From the UHGV virus genome UHGV-0107297: DNA of 18,657 nt; one strand, given 5' to 3'. Position numbers and translations under genes: made by a program. Positions 1,613 to 14,153 of the stretch are shown here, one piece after another (position 1 is the first letter of the stretch; every line of letters starts with the position of its first letter). The notes under the pieces are model-generated. The model ran no database searches. It saw nothing but the letters and a program-made list of their open reading frames with translations, and was not told the origin of the DNA. This DNA is from a virus.

Positions 1613-1891
1613 ATGAGCGAGAAACGCGCTATTAACTGCCAGGTTAAGTTAACCGAAAAAGCAAACGATAAACTAGAGACCTTTCAGAATCGACTGCGTG
1701 AACGCAGCATAAAACTGTCAAAAGCAGACATCATCAATCTGGTGCTGTCCAATATGACGATGGGTGATTTTGATAAGATAGCTACGTCATTAGAGACTAC
1801 TGCAAAGGCTCGTGAAAAGGTCATGAAGATTTACGAAAACTCGGGTATGACCAAAGAAGATCTGGCCGATATTCTAAAACGCCTCGATTGA
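1613..1891 (+). CDS. hypothetical 92-aa protein, translationally coupled to helicase
   Basis: ATG 9 nt after helicase stop (TAGAGAGTAAGCATG); K/E-rich, no motif recognised. Confidence 0.55.
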   Translation: MSEKRAINCQVKLTEKANDKLETFQNRLRERSIKLSKADIINLVLSNMTMGDFDKIATSLETTAKAREKVMKIYENSGMTKEDLADILKRLD

Positions 1892-1898
1892 GCATTAT

Positions 1899-1924
1899 GG
1901 CGCCTTGAGGCGCCATGATTTTCG
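1899..1924 (+). terminator. candidate hairpin terminator/attenuator
   Basis: GGCGCC-TTGA-GGCGCC perfect stem at 1899-1914 followed by ATGATTTTCG; U-tract weak. Confidence 0.3.
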
Positions 1925-1950
1925 TAAAGATAAGGATTTTGTTCGGTACA

Positions 1951-2373
1951 ATGAAACACGTATTACTTCCTCTGGTTGCTGCCTCCGCGTTACTTATCAC
2001 TGCATGTCAATCTCGTCCTATTCCTGTCTCTGAGGCAAAGCCAGCACCGCAGACCAGAATATTCAAATACCAATCTCCGGCGGCATCGACGCTGGTGGTT
2101 ATGAGAGATAAAAGCATGGTGGGCGCCGGTTGCGACGCATCGATCTTCATCAATGGCGAAACCGTTGCAAAACTGGAAACAGGTGAAAAAGTCACTTTTC
2201 ATCTGGATGCCGGAGAATGGATTGTTGGCGCCTCACTCGAAGACGCTGGGCTGTGCGCACTGAATCCTGCTCGTCAGGAACGCGAGACGATTACCAAAGC
2301 TGGCGAGACGAAAGTCTTCCGGGTGTTCACCAGTAATGCTGGTGACATCGATATCTTACCAACGACACTGTGA
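1951..2373 (+). CDS. putative lipoprotein, 140 aa
   Basis: N-terminus MKHVLLPLVAASALLITAC reads as signal peptide with lipobox LITA-C; in-frame alternative ATG at 1915. Confidence 0.6.
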   Translation: MKHVLLPLVAASALLITACQSRPIPVSEAKPAPQTRIFKYQSPAASTLVVMRDKSMVGAGCDASIFINGETVAKLETGEKVTFHLDAGEWIVGASLEDAGLCALNPARQERETITKAGETKVFRVFTSNAGDIDILPTTL

Positions 2374-2377
2374 CGAT

Positions 2378-2905
2378 ATGACGAATATTACTGACATCAC
2401 CTACGGGATTCCTGCAGAAGTCTGGCCGCGCGATTACACCAACGTGGAGAAAGCGCTGATGTTCTGGCGCAAGTCTCTTATTCCTGTAAGGGTCACGATG
2501 GAAGATGGTCAGGTGTTCTGCATGTATGTTCAGGGTCTCATGTCGTCACGCAACAAGGTCGACCTTTGCCCTGCCCCGTTCGACAAAGATAATCGTATAA
2601 GGCTCCCACTTGAGCGAATCAGCACGATTGAATCAGGTGTGACAGAAGGCATTGCACACGACTTCACGGGTCGGACAACGATACACCCAGACTATGTGGA
2701 CAATCGGCCATCTCGCCGTGATTTCTTCAAAATTTGTCGCCAGGCCCATGAGATGCAGAAGTCTATAAGGGTCTACATGGCGGATGGCCGTGAAATTGAG
2801 GGGGTGTCTTCAGGCGTTGACGCTTGTCAGGTCACACTCAACATGGGGGACGGTAGGAAGACAGTCGCCATGTTCGATTGGGTCGAACGGATTTTACCGT
2901 TTTAA
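2378..2905 (+). CDS. hypothetical 175-aa protein with internal duplication; weak Rof/YaeO-like (Rho-binding) resemblance
   Basis: Likely start ATG 2378 (MTNITD) 4 nt after lipoprotein stop; two repeats each with (I/V)RVxMxDG(Q/R)...ERI pattern; Rof link is from memory and unverified. Confidence 0.5.
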   Translation: MTNITDITYGIPAEVWPRDYTNVEKALMFWRKSLIPVRVTMEDGQVFCMYVQGLMSSRNKVDLCPAPFDKDNRIRLPLERISTIESGVTEGIAHDFTGRTTIHPDYVDNRPSRRDFFKICRQAHEMQKSIRVYMADGREIEGVSSGVDACQVTLNMGDGRKTVAMFDWVERILPF

Positions 2906-2920
2906 ATCTATAAGGGTAAT

Positions 2921-2950
2921 AACCGGCTAAGTCCGGTTATTATTTTATTC
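2921..2950 (+). terminator. rho-independent terminator
   Basis: AACCGG-CTAAGT-CCGGTT hairpin at 2921-2938 followed by ATTATTTTATT. Confidence 0.6.
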
Positions 2951-3121
2951 GTCACTTCCCGTTATATTTATTTCCCACAAACTCGATTCCAATTTAAATA
3001 TATAAGGGTGATTGGCTGAATAGAGAATTTATTTAGGCAACACCTTCGAGAAAACGCGTTTTATTTCTAAGATTTTGATTTTTATTGGAGAAAAATTTTT
3101 TCGTTCCCGCATAAAAAACTC

Positions 3122-3150
3122 TTGATTTTAATTTCTGTATATCGATAATT
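3122..3150 (+). promoter_or_regulatory. sigma70-like promoter candidate
   Basis: TTGATT - 17 bp - ATAATT inside a very AT-rich intergenic region (2951-3227) upstream of CDS 3228. Confidence 0.4.
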
Positions 3151-3227
3151 AGTCACATCGAAAGCGAACACGCTAACGATAAACAAACAACAAATTAAGT
3201 TATCAATATTACATAAGGATTAACATC

Positions 3228-3878
3228 ATGTCTAACGTTACCATTTCTAAAAAATCCATTATCGACGCTGCTGTGGTTATCGCTAATGAGTTACAAGTTG
3301 CAGCCAACAACGCTACTCAGACTTATAACAATCATTATAAAAATGGTACACACACAAAAGCGGATAAAGCTAACATGCTTGCAGCGTCTACCAAACTAGC
3401 ATACTTCACCAACAACGTTTTAAACGCTGTTAATGATGAGAAATTAGCTGGTATCTTTTACTACGCGATTAAAGCAAGTAAACAAGCACCTGAAGCGTTT
3501 TTCCGTGAAGCTATGACCAATAGCTATTCACTCGAAAAACTGGTTTATCTGGTTAAATCTATTAAAGCTGGAAAGTGTGTTTATTCCGTCGCTGATATGT
3601 CCGGATCTCGTGTATTCGCTTTAATCGATATGATTAACGACGAGATCGACACGTTCACCAATGGCGCTGTTTTCGATTTAATGAATGAAGCGAAAAAAGC
3701 CAACGAAATAAAATTAGACGCAGGATACACTCAAGCCAACCAGCTTATCAATCTTTGCGAACGTCTGGGACTGGTCGAAAAAATCAAAGGAATGGGTGCA
3801 GCGAAAAACGGATCACAGCAATATCGCTTCGTTAAAAATGATTTTTATAACTATCTGGCTGATGCTTTCAAAGCGTAA
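3228..3878 (+). CDS. hypothetical 216-aa protein, AT-rich gene
   Basis: SD AAGGA before ATG; low-GC composition unlike flanking genes; no motif recognised. Confidence 0.7.
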   Translation: MSNVTISKKSIIDAAVVIANELQVAANNATQTYNNHYKNGTHTKADKANMLAASTKLAYFTNNVLNAVNDEKLAGIFYYAIKASKQAPEAFFREAMTNSYSLEKLVYLVKSIKAGKCVYSVADMSGSRVFALIDMINDEIDTFTNGAVFDLMNEAKKANEIKLDAGYTQANQLINLCERLGLVEKIKGMGAAKNGSQQYRFVKNDFYNYLADAFKA

Positions 3879-3890
3879 TTAGATGGATAT

Positions 3891-3915
3891 AGCGCCCACT
3901 ATGGGCGCTAGTTTT
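3891..3915 (+). terminator. rho-independent terminator, copy 1 of a 19-bp palindrome
   Basis: AGCGCCCACTATGGGCGCT at 3891-3909 followed by AGTTTT. Confidence 0.55.
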
Positions 3916-3928
3916 AAGGAGCTTAATC

Positions 3929-4159
3929 ATGTTTGTTCTTATCGCTGGCGTTAACGTCCATAATGAATATTATGTTAATCGCATCGCTGGGATCGCTGGG
4001 ATCGCTGGGCGCGCAGTCGAGTTTATAAATGAAACAACGCGCAAAATTGACTTATTGAACGACCAGGAGCGAAAAAAAGCAGACGTGAATGACGCTGATA
4101 TATTTTTAATGTTAAAAGCGTTTGTAGAAATGGGATTCAAAATTAGTTTACACAAATAA
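3929..4159 (+). CDS. hypothetical 76-aa protein containing IAG-IAG-IAG
   Basis: SD AAGGAG 7 nt before ATG; contains 3 tandem 9-bp repeats. Confidence 0.55.
   Translation: MFVLIAGVNVHNEYYVNRIAGIAGIAGRAVEFINETTRKIDLLNDQERKKADVNDADIFLMLKAFVEMGFKISLHK
3983..4009 (+). repeat. 3 x 9-bp perfect tandem repeat ATCGCTGGG
   Basis: Direct reading: atcgctggg atcgctggg atcgctggg, in-frame inside CDS 3929-4159. Confidence 0.9.
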
Positions 4160-4165
4160 AATCGA

Positions 4166-4190
4166 GCGCCCACTATGGGCGCTTTTTTCG
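4166..4190 (+). terminator. rho-independent terminator, copy 2 of the same 19-bp palindrome
   Basis: AGCGCCCACTATGGGCGCT at 4166-4184 followed by TTTTTTC. Confidence 0.7.
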
Positions 4191-4589
4191 TTTCCAATAC
4201 TCCCACCATAACGCGCCATCATTAGCGCGTTTTTTATTGTCTTTAACTCGCTCCAACAACATAAAAATAAGCACCAAAATAACGCCATAGACGCGCTTTT
4301 ATATCCTTGTTAGTACATACACATTACTTAACACATTAACGCGCTTAAAACGCGTTATATTGCGCTATAGAGTATGGTTAATCATTGGCTTTTAGTCTTG
4401 CTATGTGATCCGCGTTTATTTGTCGGCGCGGATCGGCTCTTTGTGTTGTTTTGTATCCGCTCGCATATGATTGCCACGTTGGGCAACGTGTACGCGCTTA
4501 CAGTGATTTACCCACGGATTCACATAATCACATAGCGAAAGCTATCTGGATGGCCCAGGGGCTGAAACCCCCACCAGCGCTACCCCAGC

Positions 4590-4780
4590 GCCGCTACGCA
4601 ATTTCTGGCGCGATTCCGGGTTTCTCCCGCTCAGTTTTCTACATAAAGGCGACCCCCGCCGTTTCCCGAAAAAATCTTGGCCGTTTCCCGTCGGCTCATG
4701 AATGCGTTCCTCGCCGTTTCTGAAAATTTCCCTGCGGCAGCTGGTGGCTATAGAGAAAGGGCCGTTTCTGGCCCTCTTCT
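4590..4780. repeat. structured non-coding region with GCCGTTTCCCG / GCCGTTTCTG direct repeats (region A)
   Basis: Copies at about 4659, 4680, 4713 and 4761, plus gggtttctcccg at about 4611; shares CGTTTC(CC)TGAAAA...TTTCCCTGCGGC with 8693-8731. Confidence 0.5.
4758..4775 (-). terminator. terminator of CDS 4784-5266
   Basis: Minus strand reads AGGGCC-AGAAAC-GGCCCT then TTCTCTAT immediately after the stop. Confidence 0.45.
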
Positions 4781-4783
4781 CAG

Positions 4784-5266
4784 TTACACGCCATCAAGGA
4801 TGTGGATGCGGTTGCTTGCGTATACATTCAGCATAAAGTTAGCGCAAAACAGTTTCCATGTGTCAACGCCAGCGGCATACGTAATGTTTTTGCATTTTAT
4901 TGCATTGTTGGCGATCCGCATCCCCTGCGATACTGCTTCATCGTCGGAAAATTTGAACGACGATTGAGTTTTAATCCAGACAGAAATCTGCGTAGCGAAC
5001 TCAATCAGCTTGGACTGGCAGAATCGCCCGGAGCGTACCGGGAAGACAAATGTTCCGAAGCCAGAATTTGCGACATACGCTTTCTCAATTACCCGTGAGT
5101 AACGACGTTTGCAAATGATGTCGCGTGCAATAATGCATTTTTCTTGTGCTGACAGTTCTACCGTCTCATTGTCGCGCCATGCACCAAGTACTCGTTTTTC
5201 AATATCAGAGAACGTTACAGCGATATTGCCATGTGCGGGTGCGTTTACAGTAGCGATAAAATTCAT
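4784..5266 (-). CDS. hypothetical 160-aa protein
   Basis: SD AAGGAA 8 nt before ATG at 5266; box copy upstream. Confidence 0.65.
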   Translation of the reverse strand: MNFIATVNAPAHGNIAVTFSDIEKRVLGAWRDNETVELSAQEKCIIARDIICKRRYSRVIEKAYVANSGFGTFVFPVRSGRFCQSKLIEFATQISVWIKTQSSFKFSDDEAVSQGMRIANNAIKCKNITYAAGVDTWKLFCANFMLNVYASNRIHILDGV

Positions 5267-5282
5267 GATTAATTCCTTATCG

Positions 5283-5320
5283 TAAATAACAAATTGTTTT
5301 CTTGTTGGTGTTAATTATCG
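5283..5320 (-). promoter_or_regulatory. conserved box copy 1 (AAACAAATTGTTTTCTTGTTGGTGTTAATTATCG)
   Basis: Palindromic core AACAAATTGTT; minus-strand TTGACG-17-TAATTA overlaps it; about 20 nt before the SD of CDS 4784-5266. Confidence 0.5.
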
Positions 5321-5441
5321 TTGTACGAATAAGGCGTCAAAGTGGAAAGTTGCGGTAGCCGGACGGGAACAGGTGGGTTTGTCGGTTGCCTGGAGGTAAG
5401 AGGTTGGTGTTTTTAGCCTGCGGGAAACAGGATGGTCATTT

Positions 5442-5465
5442 AAGGCCACCAGCATTGGTGGCCTT
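5442..5465. terminator. GC hairpin AAGGCCACCA-GCAT-TGGTGGCCTT 3' of CDS 5471-5758
   Basis: Perfect 10-bp stem; no clean U-tract on either strand, so terminator or stabilising stem-loop. Confidence 0.35.
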
Positions 5466-5470
5466 ACTCT

Positions 5471-5758
5471 TTAGTGGAGCAGACCGATGTCGATGGTATC
5501 CCCTGAATCATCCACACGGATCATCAGCATGGCGAAGGCGTTTAGTGGATAGCTTGCGTGCCATTCAGGGAAGCGGTCATCTCGCATGAAGTCGGCAATG
5601 TCGTAAACGCAGCCCTCAAAGTGGAAGAATCGCGTGCTTACCTGCTCGTCATATTCCACATGATCCATTTCTTGCTGTTCTGTTTCCGGCAAGTCCAGCC
5701 ATGATTCAAGGAATACATTTTGTGCTTTAGGGGTAATGGTGAAATCAGTCATGAGCAT
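5471..5758 (-). CDS. hypothetical acidic 95-aa protein
   Basis: Track ORF 5471-5884 trimmed to in-frame ATG at 5758 (GTGAGGAT-ATG); D/E-rich; box copy 2 upstream. Confidence 0.55.
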   Translation of the reverse strand: MLMTDFTITPKAQNVFLESWLDLPETEQQEMDHVEYDEQVSTRFFHFEGCVYDIADFMRDDRFPEWHASYPLNAFAMLMIRVDDSGDTIDIGLLH

Positions 5759-5770
5759 ATCCTCACTGCG

Positions 5771-5804
5771 TAAACATATTGTTTTCTTGTTGGTGTAATT
5801 ATCG
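5771..5804 (-). promoter_or_regulatory. conserved box copy 2 (TAAACATATTGTTTTCTTGTTGGTGTAATTATCG)
   Basis: Near-identical to copy 1; abuts the SD of CDS 5471-5758. Confidence 0.5.
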
Positions 5805-5912
5805 CAGTGTAGATAAGGCATAAAAGAAGTTAATACAGGCTGAATACACAAGAAAGGTTCTGGAAGTTGATAGCCAGGTTTCAAACTAACCTTCGGTTAT
5901 TAAAAGTCATTT

Positions 5913-5936
5913 AAGACCACCAATGCTGGTGGCCTT
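5913..5936 (-). terminator. hairpin AAGACCACCA-ATGC-TGGTGGCCTT, relative of the 5442 hairpin
   Basis: 3' of the small ORF 5942-6085; minus strand continues AAATGACTTTTAAT. Confidence 0.4.
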
Positions 5937-5941
5937 AATAA

Positions 5942-6085
5942 TTATCGCCCGATTACGCTAAGGATCTTTTCCTCAACTGATTTGTTGTTGCGACTAAACT
6001 GCCTTGCGTATCTTATGACAGAAGAGGCGTTTCGCTTTCTGACCATCTCGGCTCTCTCCTTCAGGCGTTTCTTGAAATCGCCCAT
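5942..6085 (-). CDS. unannotated small basic ORF, 47 aa (MGDFKKRLKERAEMVRKRNASSVIRYARQFSRNNKSVEEKILSVIGR)
   Basis: ATG 2 nt after stop of CDS 6088-6462 (TAA-AT-ATG), GGTGG SD-like upstream, hairpin directly downstream; below the track length cutoff. Confidence 0.3.
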   Translation of the reverse strand: MGDFKKRLKERAEMVRKRNASSVIRYARQFSRNNKSVEEKILSVIGR

Positions 6086-6087
6086 AT

Positions 6088-6462
6088 TTACCACCAGGCA
6101 CGGAACGTCAGTCTGTTATTGTGAAAGTCGTGGTTCCTGATCAGGTCTTCCACAAGTTTTTTCAGCTTATCCACGTCATGCCAGTAACCTTCATCGTACT
6201 CCTGACTGCCGAAGAAAAAACCTTCCCGGGTAGGTAAGTACACTTCGCAATTACTTTCGTTTATGTGCATCAAATGAGCCTTCAGAAAACAAATGTCATT
6301 CATCGTTAATTCTAAAAGCTCACAATTTTCGACTTCACCTACGTTGCGCTCCATCCACCCAACGAGCGCATTGAACTTACGGAAGTAAGCAACCTGCTTT
6401 CTGGATGCCTCGTTATTCAGATCGTTTTTAGGCTGCGTCTCGATATAGATATCAAGTCCCAT
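6088..6462 (-). CDS. hypothetical acidic 124-aa protein
   Basis: Track ORF begins with GTG at 6504 inside the box; in-frame ATG at 6462 has SD TAAGGATA. Confidence 0.6.
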   Translation of the reverse strand: MGLDIYIETQPKNDLNNEASRKQVAYFRKFNALVGWMERNVGEVENCELLELTMNDICFLKAHLMHINESNCEVYLPTREGFFFGSQEYDEGYWHDVDKLKKLVEDLIRNHDFHNNRLTFRAWW

Positions 6463-6513
6463 GATGGTATCCTTATTAAGTTGCTTCAGTGAAATCATTT
6501 TCACAAATCAGAT

Positions 6514-6540
6514 AAGGCAGAAAACAAATTGTTATCGGGA
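6514..6540. promoter_or_regulatory. conserved box copy 3, inverted orientation (AAGGCAGAAAACAAATTGTTATCGGG)
   Basis: Same palindromic core, flank on the other side; lies between the 6541-6570 terminator and CDS 6088-6462. Confidence 0.45.
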
Positions 6541-6570
6541 ATAAGAAAATGGCGCGGTTTACGCGCCATT
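6541..6570 (-). terminator. rho-independent terminator of CDS 6580-6975
   Basis: Minus strand: AATGGCGCG-TAAAC-CGCGCCATT then TTCTTATT. Confidence 0.6.
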
Positions 6571-6579
6571 CAAAGAGGA

Positions 6580-6975
6580 TTAAGCGAATACGCTTTCAGG
6601 GACAATGGTGTCGATCTTTTCGCCGGAGATTATTCGCAGACCGTGTTGTCCCATCCAGGTACTATTGGTATTTAAACTCGATGTATAAACCGCATCGACC
6701 TTTTTCATCAAATTTTCAAACAACGTCTGATCCGCGCCACGGAAATGAGTTTCCAGTTTTATCAGTAAAGGGTCAGAAGCATTACTGATGCTTTGGTAAC
6801 GCACCGAATATTTTCCCTTTGTGGCCTCGCCGGTGCGAGTTAAGGTACTGGTGTGAACTTCTTCGCCGGAGGCATTATCGCGTAGCACAATTGTAATTTT
6901 TGCAACTTTGTCTCCATTTTCCGTCTCTGATGCATAATACATATCCAGGGTCAGATTTTCGCGTTTAACGGTCAT
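6580..6975 (-). CDS. hypothetical 131-aa protein
   Basis: Strong SD ACTAAGGAGAGTGAA before ATG at 6975. Confidence 0.7.
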   Translation of the reverse strand: MTVKRENLTLDMYYASETENGDKVAKITIVLRDNASGEEVHTSTLTRTGEATKGKYSVRYQSISNASDPLLIKLETHFRGADQTLFENLMKKVDAVYTSSLNTNSTWMGQHGLRIISGEKIDTIVPESVFA

Positions 6976-7030
6976 TTCACTCTCCTTAGTGTTTAATTTT
7001 TAATTTTATTATCATAAGTAAGTACTTACA

Positions 7031-7062
7031 ATACAAAAAAGCCCCGAAGGATTGGCGGGGCT
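7031..7062 (-). terminator. rho-independent terminator of CDS 7097-7408
   Basis: Minus strand: AGCCCCGCC-AATCC-TTCGGGGCT then TTTTTTGTATTG. Confidence 0.7.
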
Positions 7063-7096
7063 GTCGTACATTCGACTAACTACTGCTTGCACATGT

Positions 7097-7408
7097 TTAA
7101 GCTACCGCCTGAACAGACGCTCGTTGGATCTCTTGTTGGGCGACACGGTTGGCTTCCATCAGCGCCAGTTCAAGCTGGTCCTCTGGCCACATTTTCTGGA
7201 CCGACATCCACCCTCTTCCACGCTGGCGACGAACTACCATCACATAGCGCGTAAAATTGCCCGCGTCGAAGGTAATGGCTTTTTCACGAAACAGACGGAT
7301 AGAAGTCCCATTCGCTACGATATCCAGCAATGTGAGATGCCCCATTAAGGTTGGTTTTTCTTTTCTCTCCTGACCTTCAGCAAGACCCAGCACCAATGAA
7401 GTATTCAT
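7097..7408 (-). CDS. hypothetical 103-aa protein
   Basis: Track ORF trimmed to in-frame ATG at 7408 (MNTSLVLG) with SD GGAG; box copy 4 upstream. Confidence 0.55.
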   Translation of the reverse strand: MNTSLVLGLAEGQERKEKPTLMGHLTLLDIVANGTSIRLFREKAITFDAGNFTRYVMVVRRQRGRGWMSVQKMWPEDQLELALMEANRVAQQEIQRASVQAVA

Positions 7409-7418
7409 CACCACTCCG

Positions 7419-7455
7419 TAAACAAATTGTTTTCTCAATGGCGTAAATAATACCA
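7419..7455 (-). promoter_or_regulatory. conserved box copy 4, subfamily b (AAACAAATTGTTTTCTCAATGGCGTAAATAATACC)
   Basis: Same core with a different distal flank, shared with copy 5. Confidence 0.5.
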
Positions 7456-7536
7456 GTGTAAAAACGGCTACAAAGCATATTGCTCAGGCACATGAATTAT
7501 CTAAAGGTGGTTCTTCCCTGCGGCTACAGAGAAGTT

Positions 7537-7559
7537 AAGCCAGCAGGCGGTGCTGGCTT
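7537..7559 (-). terminator. hairpin AAGCCAGCA-GGCGG-TGCTGGCTT 3' of CDS 7569-7898
   Basis: 9-bp stem; weak U-tract. Confidence 0.3.
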
Positions 7560-7568
7560 TGGTTGGGT

Positions 7569-7898
7569 TTACGCGAATACATCAAGGAACTCCTGAACGT
7601 CCCAATGCTGGACAAGGTGAAGATAGAGCTTAGAAATCACGTCATTCTCGCTATCGCATGTGAAGTAGTACTTCTGGCTGCGGTTGTATGTATCCACACA
7701 AAATTCGCTCATATCCATAAAGTCAGCATCATCACCCAGGTCGCAAATAATCAAAGCAGGAGCATCATCACGAGTCATCAGCTCAAGCACCCAGCGCGAA
7801 TTGATCAGCGTGGAAGACCAACCTTCTAACTCATAAAACTGGTCAAACTCTTTTTGAGTCATTTTCTTGATTTGGTTGATGTCGATATTTGCAAACAT
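7569..7898 (-). CDS. hypothetical acidic 109-aa protein
   Basis: Track ORF trimmed to in-frame ATG at 7898 (MFANIDIN) with SD AAGGA; D-rich. Confidence 0.55.
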   Translation of the reverse strand: MFANIDINQIKKMTQKEFDQFYELEGWSSTLINSRWVLELMTRDDAPALIICDLGDDADFMDMSEFCVDTYNRSQKYYFTCDSENDVISKLYLHLVQHWDVQEFLDVFA

Positions 7899-7909
7899 AA
7901 CGCAATCCT

Positions 7910-7945
7910 TAAACATGTTGTTTTCTGAATTGCGTAAACAATACC
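7910..7945 (-). promoter_or_regulatory. conserved box copy 5, subfamily b (AAACATGTTGTTTTCTGAATTGCGTAAACAATACC)
   Basis: Aligns with copy 4 over about 35 bp. Confidence 0.5.
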
Positions 7946-8009
7946 AGTAAGAAAACGGCCACAAAGTATATCGTTACGGTGCTGCGCTGCCCCGGAGGTT
8001 AATAGCGAC

Positions 8010-8030
8010 AAAAGCCACCGTGCTGGTGGC
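8010..8030 (-). terminator. rho-independent terminator of CDS 8038-8256
   Basis: Minus strand: GCCACCAGCACGGTGGC then TTTTGTCGC. Confidence 0.5.
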
Positions 8031-8037
8031 CTCACTC

Positions 8038-8256
8038 TTAATCTTCGTCGCCCGGGAACTCGCTGTGTACCGCGTCCACCAGCTCCCGCTTTTCATCTTC
8101 ACTCAGCAGGTGCCAGATATCCTTCCCTTTGGGCGATTCCCCTTCTGCCGGGACGAACGACCACAACTTGCGGTACAACTCCGGCCCCACTGCATCCAGA
8201 CACTCAGCCAGGGAATCCACGCCCCACACCTCAACCGTCACAGGCATCTTAATCAT
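8038..8256 (-). CDS. hypothetical acidic 72-aa protein
   Basis: ATG at 8256 preceded by GTGAGGATGAAGAG; D/E-rich. Confidence 0.55.
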   Translation of the reverse strand: MIKMPVTVEVWGVDSLAECLDAVGPELYRKLWSFVPAEGESPKGKDIWHLLSEDEKRELVDAVHSEFPGDED

Positions 8257-8286
8257 CTCTTCATCCTCACTTCGTTTATATAACGT

Positions 8287-8322
8287 CTAAACATGTTGTT
8301 TACTTGTTGGTGTTATTATCGC
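8287..8322 (-). promoter_or_regulatory. conserved box copy 6 (AAACATGTTGTTTACTTGTTGGTGTTATTATCG)
   Basis: Subfamily a; upstream of CDS 8038-8256. Confidence 0.5.
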
Positions 8323-8589
8323 AATAAGACAAAGGCGGAAAAGGATTTTATGTCGTGAAAGCCAGGCTGGGCAGTGAATATCCGGGAACGACACGGGAGC
8401 CAGTATTTACGATATTCTGCTCTACGCGCGCCACGGGGCTGGTGGGCAGAATATCCTTCTCCCCGAAAACCTACTGAAATAGCTTGAGACCCAATGATGG
8501 TCTGGCAGAATGGAGTCCAGTAGCTGCACGAGAGGGAATGACACTCCCCCGCGATTTTCAGGCGAGTGAAGAGTAAGGCGCACTCCCGA

Positions 8590-8770
8590 AGATTTCCCGC
8601 ACCGCTCCCGCAGTCGTCCCTCACTCTGTACCGGGATGTACCCGTTTCCCGACCGGCAGCCAGCCTTTCCCCGGTTCGTATAGCGGGATTCCCACCGTTT
8701 CCCTGAAAACCTCAAGCCTTTTCCCTGCGGCGACGCTCCCGTTCCTGAAAAGGGACATAGCTTTCCCGGA
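8590..8770. repeat. cluster of about 7 YTTTCCC(G) repeats (region B)
   Basis: gatttcccgc 8591, cccgtttcccgacc 8641, cctttccccgg 8665, ccgtttccctg 8695, ccttttccctgcgg 8718, cccgttcctg 8738, gctttcccgg 8760; related to region A. Confidence 0.5.
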
Positions 8771-8954
8771 TGGCCCGAAGGCTGACCGAAGGGGTGGAAA
8801 GGGACGTTACGGGGGATGAAAACTATGGCTTGAATTTATGCGGAAAAAGTGGCGATACCCCTCCTTCCCTTCCCACTTATACCTCCCACGAATTTTCTCT
8901 CTTATGTGGGCATAAACCTTCCCTCTGATAACGCTCTATACGGCGAGTATTCCT

Positions 8955-9480
8955 TTGGGTGAAATGGGTGGTTTGTTCTTTCTACCGGCATATGTGGTTT
9001 CGTTCTTCTTGAGGTGGTTCTTCTCTGTGTTTTCGTCTGGGTTGTTCTCGTCGTTTTGGTGAGTGTTCTTCTCCGTGTATGGAGTAATGGCAGGTGCGCT
9101 TTTCTCTTCGTTTACGTGAAATGATGAAAGTGTGGGTAATGGCAGTAGGGCGCTTTAGTTGTTCTCCGCATATGAAGTAATGGCGTTCCCTGCTATTCAG
9201 GAATTTGCGCTCTCTTTCGGGGTAATGGTGGGTAAACGAGATTGTGACGGCTCCTGTTCTTGTCTGGGTTTGTCCGGGGTTTCGTTCTGGCTGTTCTTCT
9301 CCGTGTATTGGGTAATGACGTATCGGGGTTTGCGCGTGCGAACCGCGTTCTCGGTTGCCTGGGAATATTAGGTGGGTGGTCTGTAGCCTGGGGCAATGAG
9401 GTGGGTCTTTTCGGTAGTCTGACAGGAAGAGGTGGGTGTTTCCGGGATTGTGGGTAATGGCGTCTCTGGGTTTCCTGTGG
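8955..9480. repeat. degenerate G/T-rich repeat array, no convincing ORF
   Basis: About 22-bp GKTKKTTCTTCTC units at 8960-9080; GTAATGG at 9084, 9136, 9177, 9222, 9312 (GTAATGA) and 9455; a 26-bp block GTTCTTCTCCGTGTATNGRGTAATGRC at 9065 and 9293; strong G+T strand bias. Confidence 0.6.
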
Positions 9481-9546
9481 GGGTTGTTAACTTGTTTTCT
9501 TATGCCTGAAAACAACTTGTTTAGATGCCCAATATAACGCAACGGG

Positions 9547-9571
9547 AGCGCTTCTGAGCGCTTCTGTTTTT
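9547..9571 (+). terminator. plus-strand rho-independent terminator at the right end of the repeat array
   Basis: AGCGC-TTCTGA-GCGCT hairpin followed by TCTGTTTTTGAG. Confidence 0.45.
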
Positions 9572-9714
9572 GAGTGATATCACGAGTCGTTTTTGACGTT
9601 TTGGTCGCAGGGAGATGGATTCTGGTGCGCAGGATTTTGGGTATAAGAGATGGCTTGCGAAAACGTCAACTTTTTAGACCAAATCAGAGGAAAGCGTTGA
9701 CTTTTCGTTGACGT

Positions 9715-9748
9715 GTTATTTATTTGTTTTCTTATGGGTGTAATTGGC
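9715..9748 (-). promoter_or_regulatory. degenerate conserved-box copy (TTATTTATTTGTTTTCTTATGGGTGTAATTGG), no gene downstream
   Basis: Matches the subfamily-a flank with only half of the palindrome; adjacent GTTGAC/GTCAAC repeats at 9664-9712. Confidence 0.3.
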
Positions 9749-9865
9749 TTAAATGCCTTGTCACCCCTGGGCTGGGGTAGGTTGGAGAGGTGGGGGAAGT
9801 GGCGATCAACGGACTCTTATAGAAATCCTCAATTTGTGACCGCCAATGTCAACGAGTTGCAGCCG

Positions 9866-10492
9866 TTAGTCGTTTAGGTAGTAATTAGGCACGCGAACGT
9901 AGAAATTCTCGTCACCGATCATTTCGATAGTGATGTTAATGTCATTACCGTTATCCAGTGTAGCCGTGGCTTTGTAGAACTTGTCCGTCACTTTGTCCTG
10001 AATTGTTACCTTCATGCATTTAGATGCTTCTGAACCGTTATTTTCTTTCAGAATAGTGGTAACTATAGGGCAAGCAGCTTCTTCAAGCGCTGAATCTGCG
10101 TTGAAGCTATACACGAAAAATGATGCAGCAAAGGCAACAATCCATACGATAAACAGCAGTCGGTTACTTCCAAGAACCGTCGCTCGTTTCCAGAGATACA
10201 CAGGGGGGATAAAGAACCCACATAAGAATGATGGTGGCTCATAGCCTGCCTCAGTCAAATTCATGCGATCGGCGACCAGCAGTCCAAGCCCAATGACGAA
10301 CGAAATCACCATAACGTAATTGTCGTACTCAGCAGGGGGGACGCTGACAACAAACGGCAGTATTGCTATAAGCCACGCGTAGAGGTTTTTAACTGATTTT
10401 TTTTCTAAAGTATCGATTTCCATTACATCCATTCCATTTTGAAATACAAGCGGGTATATGATATCAACTTTCCAGGTAATTATTCCCGCCAT
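9866..10492 (-). CDS. predicted integral membrane protein, 208 aa, with about 80-aa soluble C-terminal domain
   Basis: ATG at 10492 is 15 nt after the upstream stop; hydrophobic segments LYAWLIAILPFVVSV, YVMVISFVIGLGLLV, LLFIVWIVAFAASFFVY. Confidence 0.65.
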   Translation of the reverse strand: MAGIITWKVDIIYPLVFQNGMDVMEIDTLEKKSVKNLYAWLIAILPFVVSVPPAEYDNYVMVISFVIGLGLLVADRMNLTEAGYEPPSFLCGFFIPPVYLWKRATVLGSNRLLFIVWIVAFAASFFVYSFNADSALEEAACPIVTTILKENNGSEASKCMKVTIQDKVTDKFYKATATLDNGNDINITIEMIGDENFYVRVPNYYLND

Positions 10493-10507
10493 TGCTAGTA
10501 GTTATAT

Positions 10508-10828
10508 CTACCAATCCCATGCTGGCATTCCATCCACCAGCTCCGCATCACAGTCAAATTGTACCGAATCATACCCGGCATCCCGTATGGCCTGTATGTT
10601 AGAGATCGCCTCTTGGGAAATGCCGTAATCACGCAATTCTTCCTTCCAGTCATTCCCTCGCATTCCAGCACGAACAATCCATCCATACTGTGTACCGTGT
10701 ACCCAATTCAACCCGCGATCAGTAAGTGGGTCGAAGCAGGCAATGGGTAGCCGTTCTGAATCCGCTGCCGTGACGTGGGCGGTGCTGATCACCGCCGTCT
10801 TATACGATTCGGTGATTTTCAGCATCAT
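10508..10828 (-). CDS. hypothetical 106-aa protein
   Basis: Strong SD CCAAAGGAGAAGGC before ATG at 10828; start overlaps upstream stop (ATGA). Confidence 0.7.
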   Translation of the reverse strand: MMLKITESYKTAVISTAHVTAADSERLPIACFDPLTDRGLNWVHGTQYGWIVRAGMRGNDWKEELRDYGISQEAISNIQAIRDAGYDSVQFDCDAELVDGMPAWDW

Positions 10829-11061
10829 GCCTTCTCCTTTGGAAACAGAATGTTGGCCGTGTCAGAAATGACATCCCAATTCACGCCGACGCTGGCATCA
10901 TGGCACTCTTTGATTTTTCGCAAAACCTGAACGCACTGTTCGTCAGTCAGGTCTGGTCGCCCTTCACCTACATCTTCCTTGTGCCACATCACCATCAGCA
11001 GCGGCTCGTCTTCTGGGTAGTTCTCCAGCTTTTCGATAATTTCTTTCGCGGTTCCGAACAT
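10825..11061 (-). CDS. hypothetical acidic 78-aa protein
   Basis: Track start at 11079 is a TTG inside the box; in-frame ATG at 11061 has SD AAGGAG. Confidence 0.6.
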   Translation of the reverse strand: MFGTAKEIIEKLENYPEDEPLLMVMWHKEDVGEGRPDLTDEQCVQVLRKIKECHDASVGVNWDVISDTANILFPKEKA

Positions 11062-11072
11062 GATTAACTCCT

Positions 11073-11106
11073 TAAACAATTTGTTTTCTTATTGGTATTA
11101 TTATCT
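11073..11106 (-). promoter_or_regulatory. conserved box copy 7 (AAACAATTTGTTTTCTTATTGGTATTATTATCTC)
   Basis: Palindrome abuts the SD of CDS 10825-11061. Confidence 0.5.
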
Positions 11107-11117
11107 CAAATAACGAA

Positions 11118-11140
11118 AGGCAGAAAACAAGATGTTTAAG
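11118..11140. promoter_or_regulatory. conserved box copy 8, inverted (GGCAGAAAACAAGATGTTTAAGGG)
   Basis: Back-to-back with copy 7; same GGCAGAAAACAA flank as copy 3. Confidence 0.4.
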
Positions 11141-11146
11141 GGATGA

Positions 11147-11413
11147 CTAGGTGAGTTTGAAGTCGTCTATGTCATCAACAAACTCCATATACCTGGCTTC
11201 GACACTCGACAATCTGATCAGATACGCAAGCCCGTAACTTAGTGAAGTGGGTTGCTCCAGCACAAATTCGAACCCATCCTCATGCGTTTTACCAAGCCAG
11301 AACCCCCCACCGTATTCTTTTTCACGTTGGAAGAAAACGAACTGTCCGGGTATTAGGTGCTTGAGTGCTTCGCCCCTATAGACGATCACATATTTAGAAT
11401 TCTTGCTGCCCAT
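11147..11413 (-). CDS. hypothetical 88-aa protein
   Basis: Track ORF begins with TTG at 11470; in-frame ATG at 11413 has SD GCGAGGCGAGCA; start uncertain. Confidence 0.5.
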   Translation of the reverse strand: MGSKNSKYVIVYRGEALKHLIPGQFVFFQREKEYGGGFWLGKTHEDGFEFVLEQPTSLSYGLAYLIRLSSVEARYMEFVDDIDDFKLT

Positions 11414-11486
11414 TGCTCGCCTCGCAATACTGCACATATAAACAGTGGTATTTATTACGGTACTGGTCAACTTTACGGGTTAATTG

Positions 11487-11518
11487 AATAACAAGATGGT
11501 GAAAACAATTTGTTTTGG
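11487..11518 (+). promoter_or_regulatory. conserved box copy 9 (AACAAGATGGTGAAAACAATTTGTTTTGGCG)
   Basis: Core GAAAACAATTTGTTTT; about 85 nt upstream of plus-strand CDS 11601. Confidence 0.45.
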
Positions 11519-11600
11519 CGCTTGAGATTTTGCAAATCGCACCTACATGGAAAACGGCAATTTTTGAAACCTGATTTGACCCATGTGAAAGGAGGAAACG

Positions 11601-11804
11601 ATGAAGACCTATGATCGCAACCGTAACACTATCACTACCGGCAGCCGAGTGATGGTGGCAACGAATGGTGCAACGGGAGTCATCAAGGAAATCTGCGGAG
11701 AAGGCAAATCAGAAGAACAATTACGCCGCTCTGACTGCGTGTCTATCGAAGGTGTGGAAGATCTGTTCTGCCCAATGGATTTAGTTCGCCTGGGATTCCA
11801 ATAA
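11601..11804 (+). CDS. hypothetical 67-aa protein
   Basis: Strong SD GAAAGGAGGAAACG before ATG; no motif recognised. Confidence 0.65.
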   Translation: MKTYDRNRNTITTGSRVMVATNGATGVIKEICGEGKSEEQLRRSDCVSIEGVEDLFCPMDLVRLGFQ

Positions 11805-11805
11805 T

Positions 11806-11852
11806 TACACCACTAATTAAACAAATTGTTTAAGGCCACAAATAATGGCCTT
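11806..11852. promoter_or_regulatory. conserved box copy 10 fused to a GC hairpin
   Basis: ATAATTACACCACTAATTAAACAAATTGTTT followed directly by AAGGCCA-CAAATAA-TGGCCTT (11832-11852), between convergent genes. Confidence 0.4.
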
Positions 11853-11859
11853 ATCTGGC

Positions 11860-12558
11860 TTACGGAACAGCAGTAATCAGATCGCAAATGCCTGTTTTAG
11901 TTAAATCACTATTTAGCTTCTGAAAATTGGCATTCAGCATTGCGGTATGTATTCGATTCTCAAGTTCAAAGAAGAGATCGATCTTGCCCTCTTTGGCTGC
12001 CACCTTCTTCCAAATATTCACCTGGTCATCTGCGATACGACTTGCGCAGGTGAACAAGAACGAACTCCCTCTGGGAAGGGATGTCGTGCTGTAGTATTCA
12101 CCGTCAACTTCAATATACTTAGCTCGGAATGACTCCAGAGTTAGCTTTTTACCGCTCTCAGCCTGCTTTGTGTCTGCCTTGCTTGTCTTTTCCTGAACTT
12201 CAGGCTGTTTCTGCACAGGCTTTGGTGTCTCATTGACCACCGCAGTGCTGGCCGAACCATCCAAACTCTTGAGGCCATTAATTTGGATTAGATAAGCCAA
12301 CTCCAGAGTCTTATCACCAGTGAGTTTTCCACGCATACTTACCCATTGACGCTGAACCGTCTTTAAGGCGTCTGCGTCCCCCGGGTTTGCTTTGAGTGCG
12401 TTGGAATAGGTAGAGCTAAGTTGTTCGTCTAATTTTGACAGGCGTTCGTTATCGCAGATTTTGTGTTCGATTTCTGCCGAAGCCTTTTGGCAGTCAAAGC
12501 TGGCTGCAAATACAGCCGGCGATGCCACCAACAATGATGCCAGTAGGATATTTTTCAT
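11860..12558 (-). CDS. secreted protein with DUF1311 / LprI-like (lysozyme-inhibitor family) N-terminal domain, 232 aa
   Basis: Track start is GTG at 12564; in-frame ATG at 12558 has SD GGAG; signal peptide MKNILLASLLVASPAVFA; spaced Cys pattern FDCQKASAEIEHKICDN...QRQWV typical of DUF1311 as recalled. Confidence 0.65.
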   Translation of the reverse strand: MKNILLASLLVASPAVFAASFDCQKASAEIEHKICDNERLSKLDEQLSSTYSNALKANPGDADALKTVQRQWVSMRGKLTGDKTLELAYLIQINGLKSLDGSASTAVVNETPKPVQKQPEVQEKTSKADTKQAESGKKLTLESFRAKYIEVDGEYYSTTSLPRGSSFLFTCASRIADDQVNIWKKVAAKEGKIDLFFELENRIHTAMLNANFQKLNSDLTKTGICDLITAVP

Positions 12559-12596
12559 ATTCACTCCATAAATATAAAAGCGCCTGACTATAGCAC

Positions 12597-12812
12597 TTAA
12601 CCGATTGCTTCTCTCATCTGATTGTGAAGCTCTTTCAGCCCATTACGTACCGCGTTCATGATACGTTCCAGGTATTGGTATCTGGGGTTTGGCACCGTTG
12701 GCCAACCGGCATACCACGGATCGTCACCAAACAGACTCAGCAGTTCGTTACCGACACCGAAACAGCAGCAACTTTCTTTTACGTCATCAGCGTTTTCTGC
12801 CTCGTCCCACAT
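12597..12812 (-). CDS. hypothetical 71-aa protein (weak)
   Basis: ATG ORF with weak SD; frame is open a further 87 nt upstream without a start. Confidence 0.3.
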   Translation of the reverse strand: MWDEAENADDVKESCCCFGVGNELLSLFGDDPWYAGWPTVPNPRYQYLERIMNAVRNGLKELHNQMREAIG

Positions 12813-12858
12813 ATTGCGGGCCTGCTCTGCGTCGATTTCTCTCTCTCCCTGCGCAACT

Positions 12859-13167
12859 TTATGATTTCGGATTTGACGAAAAGCAGGTTTGCGTCGTTGT
12901 CATCGTCGACCGTACTGAAGTGGCACACTGAATTTGGCCGTCTGTAATGGGCAGATCCGGCAACTGTTTAAAAACTTCCATCTGCTCATGGATACGCAGA
13001 AACCACCTTGCCAGCTCCATCTGCTCACCGCGGGTGAGGGGATTATTCAGCGGGGACTTAACAAAAGCGGAGACTCGCTCGACAATAGGCGGCGATCTTC
13101 GCCAGACGGTCACACATTTCGTTCTCGCGATGACCTGCATGGCCTTTAACCCACTTCCAGCGGACAT
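12859..13167 (-). CDS. hypothetical 102-aa ORF overlapping the 3' end of the rnhA homolog (weak)
   Basis: ATG at 13167 lies inside the RNase H frame (13058-13513) in another frame; may be spurious. Confidence 0.25.
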
Positions 13168-13513
13168 TATGACGACTGGCGGCCGCGTCGAGACGTTTCC
13201 AGAGATCCACGTTTTTGACTGGCTTCTTCTCAGACGTGATCCATCCGTTACGCTTCCAGCCTTTCATCCAGAGCGTCATGCCGTTTTTAAGATACTGGCT
13301 GTCGGAATGCAGGATCACGTTGCAGGGGTACTTCAGACGCTCCAGCGCAATCAGGGCGCCCATCATCTCCATCCGATTGTTGGTCGTGCTGTGGAAGCCC
13401 TCAGAAAGCTCGCGCTCTTCGCCTCGATACTGGAGAACGATGCCGTAACCGCCCGGCCCGCCCGGATTTTTGAGGCAGGAGCCATCACTGAATACTTTTA
13501 CGGTTTTGAGCTG
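13058..13513 (-). pseudogene. rnhA: RNase HI homolog with start codon replaced by CAG
   Basis: Translation [24 protein letters not shown]...[16 protein letters not shown]...HSDSQYL...[14 protein letters not shown]...[14 protein letters not shown] matches RNase HI along its length; codon at 13511-13513 is CAG where ATG is expected; no ATG/GTG/TTG in frame between the upstream TAA and internal Met at 13372. Confidence 0.6.
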
Positions 13514-13683
13514 GGGATTGAACTCGACTACGGGGGTTTTGAAGTTGGTACGGGATTGCTGGTGGGTTTGGTATTCGAACTGGCTCGGGCCAGTGCAATC
13601 GACAGCGAACTTTGTCAGCGCTTCATGCAGCTGGCAGCGGCTCGGTGGGCGTTACGTTTTACGATGCTTATTATGTGTAGCCC

Positions 13684-13712
13684 AATTAAAAAGACCACTA
13701 TATATAGTGGTC
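13684..13712 (-). terminator. rho-independent terminator of CDS 13752-14153
   Basis: Perfect 22-bp palindrome AGACCACTATATATAGTGGTCT followed on the minus strand by TTTTTAATTGG. Confidence 0.65.
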
Positions 13713-13751
13713 TCATGGTAATAGATAAGCACTTACCTATCAATTATCAAC

Positions 13752-14153
13752 TTATAAAATTCCAGCAAGAACATCGCGAACCTGACGGAATTGATCAGTT
13801 TGCATACCGGTGTAAATCGATGCGACAGCGTCCGCAAGGTGCTCGTTTTTATTCACCAGCACTTCCTTGCCCGATTGCTTCCGGCGCAACCACGGGGCGT
13901 TTGGCTGCTTCTGCGTAGCCCACTGAATGATCTCTTCTTTCGACGTAGTCAGCTTATTCCCGACATAGTACTTAATCTCGTTTGGCGTGACCTGTATCAG
14001 TGGCTTATCCACACACGCCAGTACGCCAAGACAACCACCATAAGAAACCATCGCTCTAGCAGATTGACTGCCTACTGGCAGTTCACAGAACACTAAATGA
14101 ACTTGGTCAATCAGTGGCTTAATACCACGCCAAATCTCGTTCAACCGCCGCAT
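13752..14153 (-). CDS. hypothetical 133-aa protein
   Basis: ATG ORF with terminator downstream; no motif assigned confidently. Confidence 0.5.
   Translation of the reverse strand: MRRLNEIWRGIKPLIDQVHLVFCELPVGSQSARAMVSYGGCLGVLACVDKPLIQVTPNEIKYYVGNKLTTSKEEIIQWATQKQPNAPWLRRKQSGKEVLVNKNEHLADAVASIYTGMQTDQFRQVRDVLAGIL

Follow-up and report, generated by a model that had tools for sequence, protein, structure and literature searches.

A recurrent palindromic box at promoters of SSU5-type phage-plasmids: a putative DNA operator

The plasmid prophage P1 carries one short operator, that of C1, at many separate promoters around its replicon. This operator is an asymmetric 17-mer (ATTGCTCTAATAAATTT) bound by a monomer, and the units under C1 control include a DnaB-type helicase (ban), a DNA methyltransferase and an antirepressor-type gene. 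KorA and KorB of the IncP plasmid RK2 act at short perfect palindromes (OA, GTTTAGCTAAAC; OB, TTTAGCSGCTAAA), found in varied positions at about a dozen promoters, that of the par operon included. The CUP repeats of IncN plasmids, under ArdK, are promoter-containing modules that precede small accessory genes. At the RNA level, T4 RegA is a translational repressor of early mRNAs. Salmonella FljA is reported to act post-transcriptionally on fliC mRNA (in passages of PMC2652032 that cite Bonifield & Hughes 2003 and Yamamoto & Kutsukake 2006).

SSU5-type phage-plasmids are common in E. coli and Klebsiella, and the family includes Salmonella Typhi pHCM2 and Yersinia pestis pMT1. To our knowledge, the control of lysis-lysogeny and maintenance in these elements is essentially unstudied. 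Here we describe a palindromic box that recurs in 18,657 nucleotides of such a replicon (the whole stretch analysed, hereafter called the window).

The replicon compared with known regulons

The replicon is an SSU5-like phage-plasmid, and the window is its accessory and early-gene region, which matches 774 plasmid records. Capsid, tail and terminase genes are present, the mobility type is non-mobilizable, and neither relaxase nor transfer genes are listed for the replicon. The original prediction had drawn an analogy, offered as such, with the IncN leading region and its CUP/ArdK regulon. The virion genes and the mobility typing contradict a conjugative-plasmid leading region, and the analogy has no basis in gene content.

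Promoter-bearing repeats do precede small genes here, as in a CUP-type regulon in the leading region of a conjugative plasmid, and these genes include DUF1380, DUF5983 and YdfZ, which we take to be families from plasmid leading regions. However, this non-mobilizable element has no conjugation system and no oriT-adjacent leading region, and its boxes also stand at replication, packaging and partition genes far from the window region. When 20 ORFs from the interval 1613 to 13918 were scanned against Pfam, the only families matched were DUF2846, Flag1_repress, DUF5983, YdfZ and LprI, none of them named for ArdK. We regard an ArdK-type regulon of this kind as scarcely credible.

As in P1, box-bearing units include a DnaB-type helicase, a DNA methyltransferase and an antirepressor-type gene. 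Unlike the asymmetric 17-bp C1 site, though, the box is a 13-bp palindrome of different sequence. SSU5-type elements are also a different phage group, whose CI-like (XRE) immunity region lacks the box and carries another palindrome, GTAAGTACTTAC. As with KorA/KorB, a short perfect palindrome is reused for maintenance and other functions, and a box precedes parA; but the box differs in sequence from OA and OB, it resides on a phage-plasmid rather than a conjugative plasmid, and no KorA/KorB homologue is tied to it.

The palindrome GTAAGTACTTAC is itself dispersed. Together with the 13-bp site at about 18 promoters it provides a testable map of a regulatory circuit.

The palindrome and its distribution

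The core of the box is a 13-base palindrome, AAACAA-N-TTGTTT. Searched as AAACAANTTGTTT, it is found at 11 sites of the window, where about one would be expected. With up to two mismatches, the 13-bp core AAACAAWTTGTTT gives 11 matches in the window (1.04 expected), a number reached in none of 200 shuffles. The 17-mer consensus of the original prediction, GAAAACAAWTTGTTTTC, gives seven window matches at up to three mismatches (0.13 expected), again unequalled in 200 shuffles. The recurrent box is thus real. All 10 copies previously listed were confirmed, but the list was incomplete: a perfect copy at 9510-9522 had been overlooked. A further half-copy, proposed at 9715-9748, does retain the left arm of the box and only that arm; it is a decayed promoter module.

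No core occurs in the window outside 5287-11831. All 11 copies (Table 1) are intergenic in a region, 4784-12564, that is about 63% coding, and all 11 have at most one mismatch when the centre base is left free. Complete relatives behave in the same way: pLAO18 and phage Cyrano each contain 18 copies with at most one mismatch, every one intergenic and most of them 8-68 nt ahead of a start codon. In pLAO18, 14 of the 18 have the same orientation and lie 8-68 nt before a start codon, and a 42-kb segment holds 15 copies where 1.7 are expected. In SSU5-type phage-plasmids the box stands at the promoters of about 18 separate genes or operons; targets in pLAO18 and Cyrano include the DnaB-like helicase, ParA, small-terminase, methyltransferase and Rha genes. 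The enriched motif keeps to intergenic promoter regions, and the transcription units it precedes are several and unrelated. Throughout the supergroup it stays the same, in Y. pestis pMT1 and in the most divergent of the sampled lineages too. Outside SSU5-type elements, the viral matches are isolated chance occurrences within coding sequences of AT-rich phages.

The centre base is entirely free (A51 C38 G45 T48 in 182 distinct copies), so that the W of the earlier consensus should read N. The palindrome had been given as 17-19 bp; symmetry holds for the 13-bp core, whereas the full 17-mer, 5'-AGA AAACAA N TTGTTT A-3', is asymmetric. No compensatory pair changes were seen in the palindrome. This finding and the free centre base fit a protein dimer on duplex DNA. 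Folded as RNA, the box hairpin has a predicted stability of -0.7 to -1 kcal/mol, which does not exceed that of shuffled sequence.

Duplication of whole cassettes does not explain the copies, as the genes that follow the boxes encode proteins of unrelated PHROG families. Two subfamilies of conserved flank had been predicted and the similarity is present, but it stems partly from homologous promoter modules exchanged between genes. The box might even lack a dedicated trans factor and be the conserved part of a mobile promoter and leader module spread by recombination among cassettes, its palindrome incidental or a homology patch for cassette shuffling. Class A copies have 35-75 bp of common flank, one gene (g109) carries different module types across genomes, which join at the box, g72 in SSU5 is entirely without the module, and gene-less orphan modules occur at 11816-11852 and 9715-9748. 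Nevertheless, the promoters of the DnaB-like helicase, ParA, small-terminase (terS), Rha and cobT-like genes have only the 17-bp motif in common and are otherwise unrelated, and within modules the box is kept where neighbouring bases vary. Two-fold symmetry with a free centre, and inverted re-use of the core at a second promoter position, would be unexpected of a passive leader. We consider this explanation improbable.

Promoter anatomy and the proposed DNA operator

The box-preceded genes are on the minus strand, and we read the box relative to the gene strand. The same order recurs in unrelated flanks: a -10 hexamer (GATAAT or TGgTATTAT), 12-14 nt, then the box. The box had been predicted to overlap the -10 element; on the gene strand it lies downstream of it. 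Both orientations do occur, as predicted, but they represent two positional classes: box-D, after the -10 hexamer, and box-U, a second, inverted copy that covers the -35 region in many promoters. With transcription starts inferred from predicted -10 matches, box-D would span about +6 to +22 (centre about +12) and box-U would be centred at about -38 to -40. On the same reference, a two-fold symmetric site overlaps the RNA polymerase footprint in the -35 region, between +1 and +20, or in both. Most box promoters carry box-D only. A consensus promoter scan recovers few of them because their -35 elements are weak.

Table 1. Box copies and associated features of the window (cores are the 13-bp palindromes)
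Feature	Position	Strand	Core	Context
Conserved 92-aa ORF	1613-1891	+		Cyrano homologue CYRAN_117
FljA-family gene, 175 aa	2378-2905	+		Pfam PF03614, E 1.9e-95, full length; PHROG 1444 'transcriptional repressor'
Box-D	5286-5302	-	5287-5299	Promoter/5' leader of gene 4784-5266, 20 nt from core to ATG; conserved in orthologous upstream regions
Predicted sigma-70-type core promoter	5312-5340	-		Gene 4784-5266; TTGACG (5340-5335), then GATAAT (5319-5314) or TAATTA; GATAAT block invariant in 44 orthologous upstream sequences
Hairpin terminator	5441-5466			Closes one-gene cassette; similar hairpins at 5911-5938, 6547-6571
Box-D	5771-5787	-	5772-5784	Before gene 5471-5752; relatives have an extra box-U 51 bp upstream
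Box-U type	6519-6535	+	6522-6534	After terminator of gene 6580-6975; over -35 region of gene 6088-6462 promoter, 60 nt from start codon
Box-D, perfect	7419-7435	-	7420-7432	Before gene 7097-7408; 12 nt after extended -10 TGgTATTAT, 11 nt before ATG
Box-D	7910-7926	-	7911-7923	Before gene 7569-7898, which has another promoter-module type in other genomes
Box-D	8288-8304	-	8289-8301	Before gene 8038-8256
Orphan double box	9485-9523	+	9485-9497 (degenerate), 9510-9522 (perfect)	Non-coding stretch, copies 25 bp apart; followed by hairpin AGCGCT-tctg-AGCGCT and T-run (9547-9575); both copies intact in relatives L247-L252
Decayed promoter module	9715-9748	-		Left arm only, as read from sequence
Box-D, perfect	11073-11089	-	11074-11086	Adjoins SD (AAGGAG) of gene 10825-11061
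Box-U	11122-11138	+	11125-11137	Over -35 region of gene 10825-11061 promoter; its centre 51 bp from that of box-D 11073-11089; 10 nt after stop codon of 11147-11413
Box, perfect	11500-11516	+	11503-11515	Between divergent genes 11147-11413 (-) and ydfZ 11601-11804 (+), about 86-90 nt from both start codons
Orphan promoter module with box	11816-11852	+	11819-11831	After ydfZ; runs into hairpin 11832-11852

Box-U and box-D are spaced by 51 bp in 49 distinct sequences, by 50 bp in two. Because box-U comes after the terminator of the preceding gene, it is not transcribed from its own promoter, yet it is as conserved as box-D even where flanks have diverged (g78 alignment: L049, L056, L031). The untranscribed position and the rigid spacing argue for a dimeric regulator that acts on DNA; the dimeric DNA-binding protein of the original prediction thus fits the promoter anatomy. 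Alternatively, descent from a copied promoter module, and not selection for phasing, could account for the 51-bp spacing and for some of the flank identity.

We think it reasonably probable that the box is the DNA operator of one dimeric, sequence-specific putative repressor, acting at sigma-70-type promoters throughout the replicon in SSU5-type phage-plasmids. Protein bound at box-D would block binding or escape of RNA polymerase. At promoters with both copies, cooperative binding of two dimers, both on roughly one side of the helix, could enclose the core promoter. The same protein would serve all sites, and its regulon would unite the one-gene cassettes of the window with units elsewhere on the replicon (DnaB-like helicase, cobT-like, ribonucleotide reductase, methyltransferase, Rha, parA and small-terminase). 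The box offers a bait sequence for discovery of the regulator.

In the Cyrano lysogen, the box-preceded cassette genes CYRAN_104-108 and 110 are at background (Table S1 of PMC9928086). The -10 elements of these silent genes look good. The parA-operon genes CYRAN_29/30 and the cassette gene CYRAN_111 are above background in these gene-level RNA-seq data, and repression would therefore not be uniform.

Another protein might bind the box: a host transcription factor conserved in Enterobacterales, or a class II-like activator that works from -40, with box-D providing feedback repression. Such a binder would suit the invariance of the box across hosts and across lineages whose own proteins are 56-60% identical, and box-U promoters have a poor -35 with the box centre near -38 to -40. 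But box-D, the sole copy at most promoters, is in a repressing position, and the chance nature of the viral matches outside SSU5-type elements also speaks against a binder of this sort. KdgR, CusR, LacI-family and FNR/CRP sites differ from the box in half-site spacing, and no Enterobacterial factor with the box consensus is known to us. We give this alternative little chance.

The FljA-like protein and an RNA-level reading

The earlier statement that the window holds no candidate regulator was too strong. ORF 2378-2905, 2.4 kb from the first box, encodes a full-length member of the FljA family, and a homologue is present in every SSU5-type element sampled. The structure model of this protein is a tandem Hfq/Sm-like fold and contains no DNA-binding fold; the predicted fold points to RNA, not DNA, binding. 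The ORF is thus a candidate trans factor for an RNA-level reading only.

In that reading the FljA-like protein would bind transcribed box-D, 11-40 nt before the start codon, and silence about 18 phage-plasmid mRNAs by repressing their translation, perhaps destabilising them too, in the manner of Salmonella FljA on fliC mRNA or of T4 RegA. The A-rich left and U-rich right arms would be read single-stranded by the Hfq-like ring, and Salmonella FljA would be a domesticated offshoot of a phage regulator. As a variant, the orphan modules of box plus terminator (9507-9575 and 11816-11852) could make short RNAs, and the self-complementary box in such an RNA could base-pair with the box of any leader that has one.

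The ubiquity of the PF03614 protein and the reported action of FljA on fliC mRNA favour such a scheme. So does the position of box-D, always close to the SD and in a single orientation relative to the gene, probably within the 5' untranslated leader. Against it, box-U lies outside the transcript of its own promoter and is equally conserved, the RNA hairpin is thermodynamically negligible with no compensatory changes seen, and single-strand recognition needs no strict reverse-complement symmetry. Spacing is fixed relative to the -10 and variable relative to the SD. Moreover, nothing box-like is present in the fliC leader of E. coli K-12, on which genuine FljA proteins act, and the FljA-like gene itself has no box. 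Identity between the phage-plasmid clade and true FljA amounts to only 35-38%, and members of the clade may simply repress host flagellin. We judge both the silencing of the box mRNAs by an Hfq-fold repressor and the phage origin of Salmonella FljA unlikely. If the modelled tandem Hfq-like fold is true of the FljA family, it would give a structural basis for the effect that FljA is reported to have on fliC mRNA.

Against a DNA operator, our preferred reading of the box, the promoters of the candidate regulator genes examined had no box of their own, and the CI-like (XRE) immunity region has the other palindrome instead. The conserved 92-aa ORF at 1613-1891 was considered as a possible ribbon-helix-helix repressor. 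Its homologue CYRAN_117 is expressed at about 12 times background in the Cyrano lysogen.

Copies and distribution of the box

The box is a 13-bp palindrome, AAACAA-N-TTGTTT, and it is heavily over-represented in the window. For its core (AAACAAWTTGTTT, up to two mismatches allowed) there are 11 matches where 1.04 would be expected, a count that no shuffled sequence attained, and the 17-mer of the original prediction matches seven times against 0.13 expected. All copies are intergenic and lie within 5287-11831. The core search recovered each of the ten copies originally listed, and added a perfect copy at 9510 that had been overlooked. Across 182 distinct copies from 44 related loci, the consensus is 5'-AGA AAACAA N TTGTTT A-3', with a free centre base, 13 palindromic bases and asymmetric flanks. 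A search of the window against Rfam gave no hit as high as the gathering score.

The window had been likened to the leading region of a conjugative plasmid. This is contradicted by its relatives, phage-plasmids typed as non-mobilizable that have capsid, tail and terminase genes. The 7.2-kb stretch around the boxes matches 774 plasmid records (745 of them typed non-mobilizable), mostly from Klebsiella, Escherichia, Enterobacter, Yersinia and Salmonella; Salmonella phage SSU5 and Escherichia phage Cyrano match it likewise. The complete relative pLAO18 (111,874 bp, IncFIB RepA) has genes for capsid, tail, terminase, DNA polymerase and integrase. On these matches, the window is part of an SSU5-type phage-plasmid, and so of the group to which S. 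Typhi pHCM2 and Y. pestis pMT1 belong. Nearly all genes at 4784-11413 are on the minus strand, small and without assigned function, and several are followed by a hairpin terminator of their own.

The copies are not scattered without bias over the replicon. In pLAO18 all 18 boxes (at most one mismatch) are intergenic, and 14 share one orientation and stand 8-68 nt ahead of a start codon; Cyrano has 18 boxes as well. Besides the cassettes (small one-gene units), boxes lie upstream of the genes for a DnaB-like helicase, a cobT-like protein, ParA, the small terminase and a DNA methyltransferase, as well as those for Rha, ribonucleotide reductase beta, TciA and others. All these non-cassette sites have nothing but the 17-bp motif in common. 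Duplication of whole cassettes, the other explanation raised originally, fails because the window proteins encoded behind boxes belong to unrelated PHROG families.

P1 (C1) and RK2 (KorA/KorB) have dispersed operator regulons. The box set is functionally like these. It belongs to neither family; nor is it a member of the IncN CUP/ArdK system. The searchable literature yielded no description of the box sequence, of FljA with a phage-plasmid or with an Hfq-like fold, or of a role for the FljA-like protein (PF03614 family; gene at 2378-2905, plus strand). In our assessment the box is genuine, a hitherto undescribed instance of a familiar type of control, exerted by a putative regulator.

Promoter modules and their mobility

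On the gene strand the elements follow in this order: a -10 hexamer (GATAAT, or an extended -10 such as TGgTATTAT), 12-14 nt, the box, 11-40 nt including the Shine-Dalgarno sequence, and the start codon. If transcription starts about 7 nt past the predicted -10, this downstream copy (box-D) spans roughly +6 to +22. The original prediction described copies in both orientations; those in the other orientation, at 6522 and 11125, form a separate positional class (box-U), directly past the terminator or stop codon of the preceding gene, where they cover the -35 region of the promoter that follows. When orthologous upstream regions are aligned, many relatives prove to have the full module, box-U - CTGCCTT - N13 - GCGATAAT - aACACCAACAAG - box-D, with box-U kept even where neighbouring bases diverge. 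The longer arms of both box-U and box-D (TTGTTTTCT, AGAAAACAA) face the core promoter. Over all loci, the centres of paired boxes are 51 bp apart in 49 distinct sequences; two further sequences have a distance of 50 bp, and 12 have 25 bp. The 25-bp class includes the pair upstream of the small-terminase gene and the double box of the non-coding stretch.

Judged by sequence comparison, the promoter modules are homologous and mobile. A single gene can have one module type in one genome and another type elsewhere, the two types joining at the box; in SSU5, one gene has no promoter module. Successive cassette terminators (Table) are near-copies of each other, of the AAGGCCACCAGCATTGGTGGCCTTA type; thus each one-gene cassette is flanked on either side by a conserved module, an arrangement that points to shuffling of cassettes through recombination.

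Y. pestis CO92 pMT1 (locus L293) keeps four boxes, at 28498 and 28523 (the terS pair) and at 37412 and 37904 (two cassettes), together with the gene block for helicase, 92-aa protein, lipoprotein and FljA-like protein; an IS1541 insertion shortens its cassette array. Upstream of the small-terminase gene (pLAO18 L002, 5100-5200; Cyrano, 57-135) the two boxes 25 bp apart lead into a GC-rich terminator-like hairpin with a T-run, after which comes the Shine-Dalgarno sequence, a layout reminiscent of antitermination-controlled late operons.

The nature of the probable operator and its binder

Two readings of the box were weighed. As box-D lies in the leader, it might be an RNA operator; this would be the more interesting mechanism, but we consider it unlikely. 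Box-U is as conserved as box-D, yet no transcript from its own promoter would include it. Folded as RNA, the box hairpin has an energy of only -0.7 to -1 kcal/mol, which shuffled sequences equal, and changes among the 182 copies affect a single side, none being compensatory. The distance from the box is constant to the -10 and variable to the Shine-Dalgarno sequence. Finally, neither the fliC leader nor the FljA-like gene itself has a box. For these reasons we prefer, with some confidence, a DNA operator.

Expression in the Cyrano lysogen, resolved to gene level only, is consistent with genes being repressed in the plasmid state (RNA-seq, Table S1 of PMC9928086). Cassette genes behind boxes are at background level. 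The FljA-like gene is at about twice background when the culture is in LB, and stronger in the other samples; parA-operon genes that lie behind a box exceed background, and CYRAN_45, homologue of the CI-like XRE gene, reaches about ten times background.

Several approaches were taken to the binder of this putative DNA operator. Signs of autoregulation were sought: the FljA-like gene has no box upstream in either the window or Cyrano, and none lies upstream of the operon of the helicase and the 92-aa protein (1613-1891, plus strand), or in the CI-like/cro-like region, including the divergent control region of the integrase-adjacent CI-like XRE gene. Covariation of protein and site, cross-family comparison and gene-content subtraction did not tell the candidates apart. 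Even in the lineage where identity of the FljA-like protein falls to 58%, the box is unchanged, which leaves no variation to correlate. Among viral contigs other than SSU5-type elements, the hits are single chance occurrences within genes of AT-rich phages. Subtraction excluded no candidate: the 92-aa and FljA-like genes persist in pMT1, and CP057419, a deletion plasmid of 52 kb, still has every candidate regulator. Pfam and PHROG scans of the cassette and other small phage-plasmid proteins found no recognisable DNA-binding domain save two weak exceptions, XRE/HTH for the CI-like protein and a LexA-type winged helix for an 88-aa protein encoded upstream of terS. To our knowledge, the half-site spacing fits none of the host consensus sites for KdgR, CusR, the LacI family, CRP/FNR, LexA, DeoR or Fis.

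A second palindrome and the non-coding stretches

A distinct dispersed palindrome, motif 2, (TAG)GTAAGTACTTAC(CTA), probably serves the XRE CI-like repressor as its operator. It occurs 10 times in a 42-kb pLAO18 segment against 0.24 expected, and at least 15 times over the whole replicon (pLAO18 L002, L003 and L004; Cyrano): in the CI-like/cro-like immunity region, the helicase promoter, the terminase-portal gene interval and before thyX. The single window copy fills the spacer of a TTGTAT-17-GATAAT promoter, that of gene 6580-6975, the sole cassette gene without a box. As RNA, motif 2 would fold into a stable hairpin (-10.7 kcal/mol, z -2.7).

Table. Non-coding features of the window
Feature	Position	Remarks
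Long non-coding stretch	4200-4780	AT-rich, then GC-rich; between plus-strand and minus-strand gene blocks; repeated words cgccgtttcc/ggccgtttc
Cassette terminator hairpins	5441-5466, 5911-5938, 7538-7560, 8013-8033	
Motif 2	7018-7029	
Stretch without convincing ORF	8300-9800	1.5 kb; repeated short words GGTAATGG, GTTCTTCT
24-bp tandem array	9016-9078	within 8300-9800
Double box	9485/9510	within 8300-9800
Terminator-like hairpin	9547-9575	within 8300-9800
Decayed promoter module	9715-9748	within 8300-9800
Units of promoter module, box and hairpin with no gene behind	9507-9575, 11816-11852	

The 1.5-kb stretch might represent a second origin or a locus for a non-coding RNA. It had no match in Rfam; in SSU5 the equivalent position holds a 399-aa ORF. 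The two gene-less units, if active, would produce RNAs of about 40-70 nt that contain the self-complementary box.
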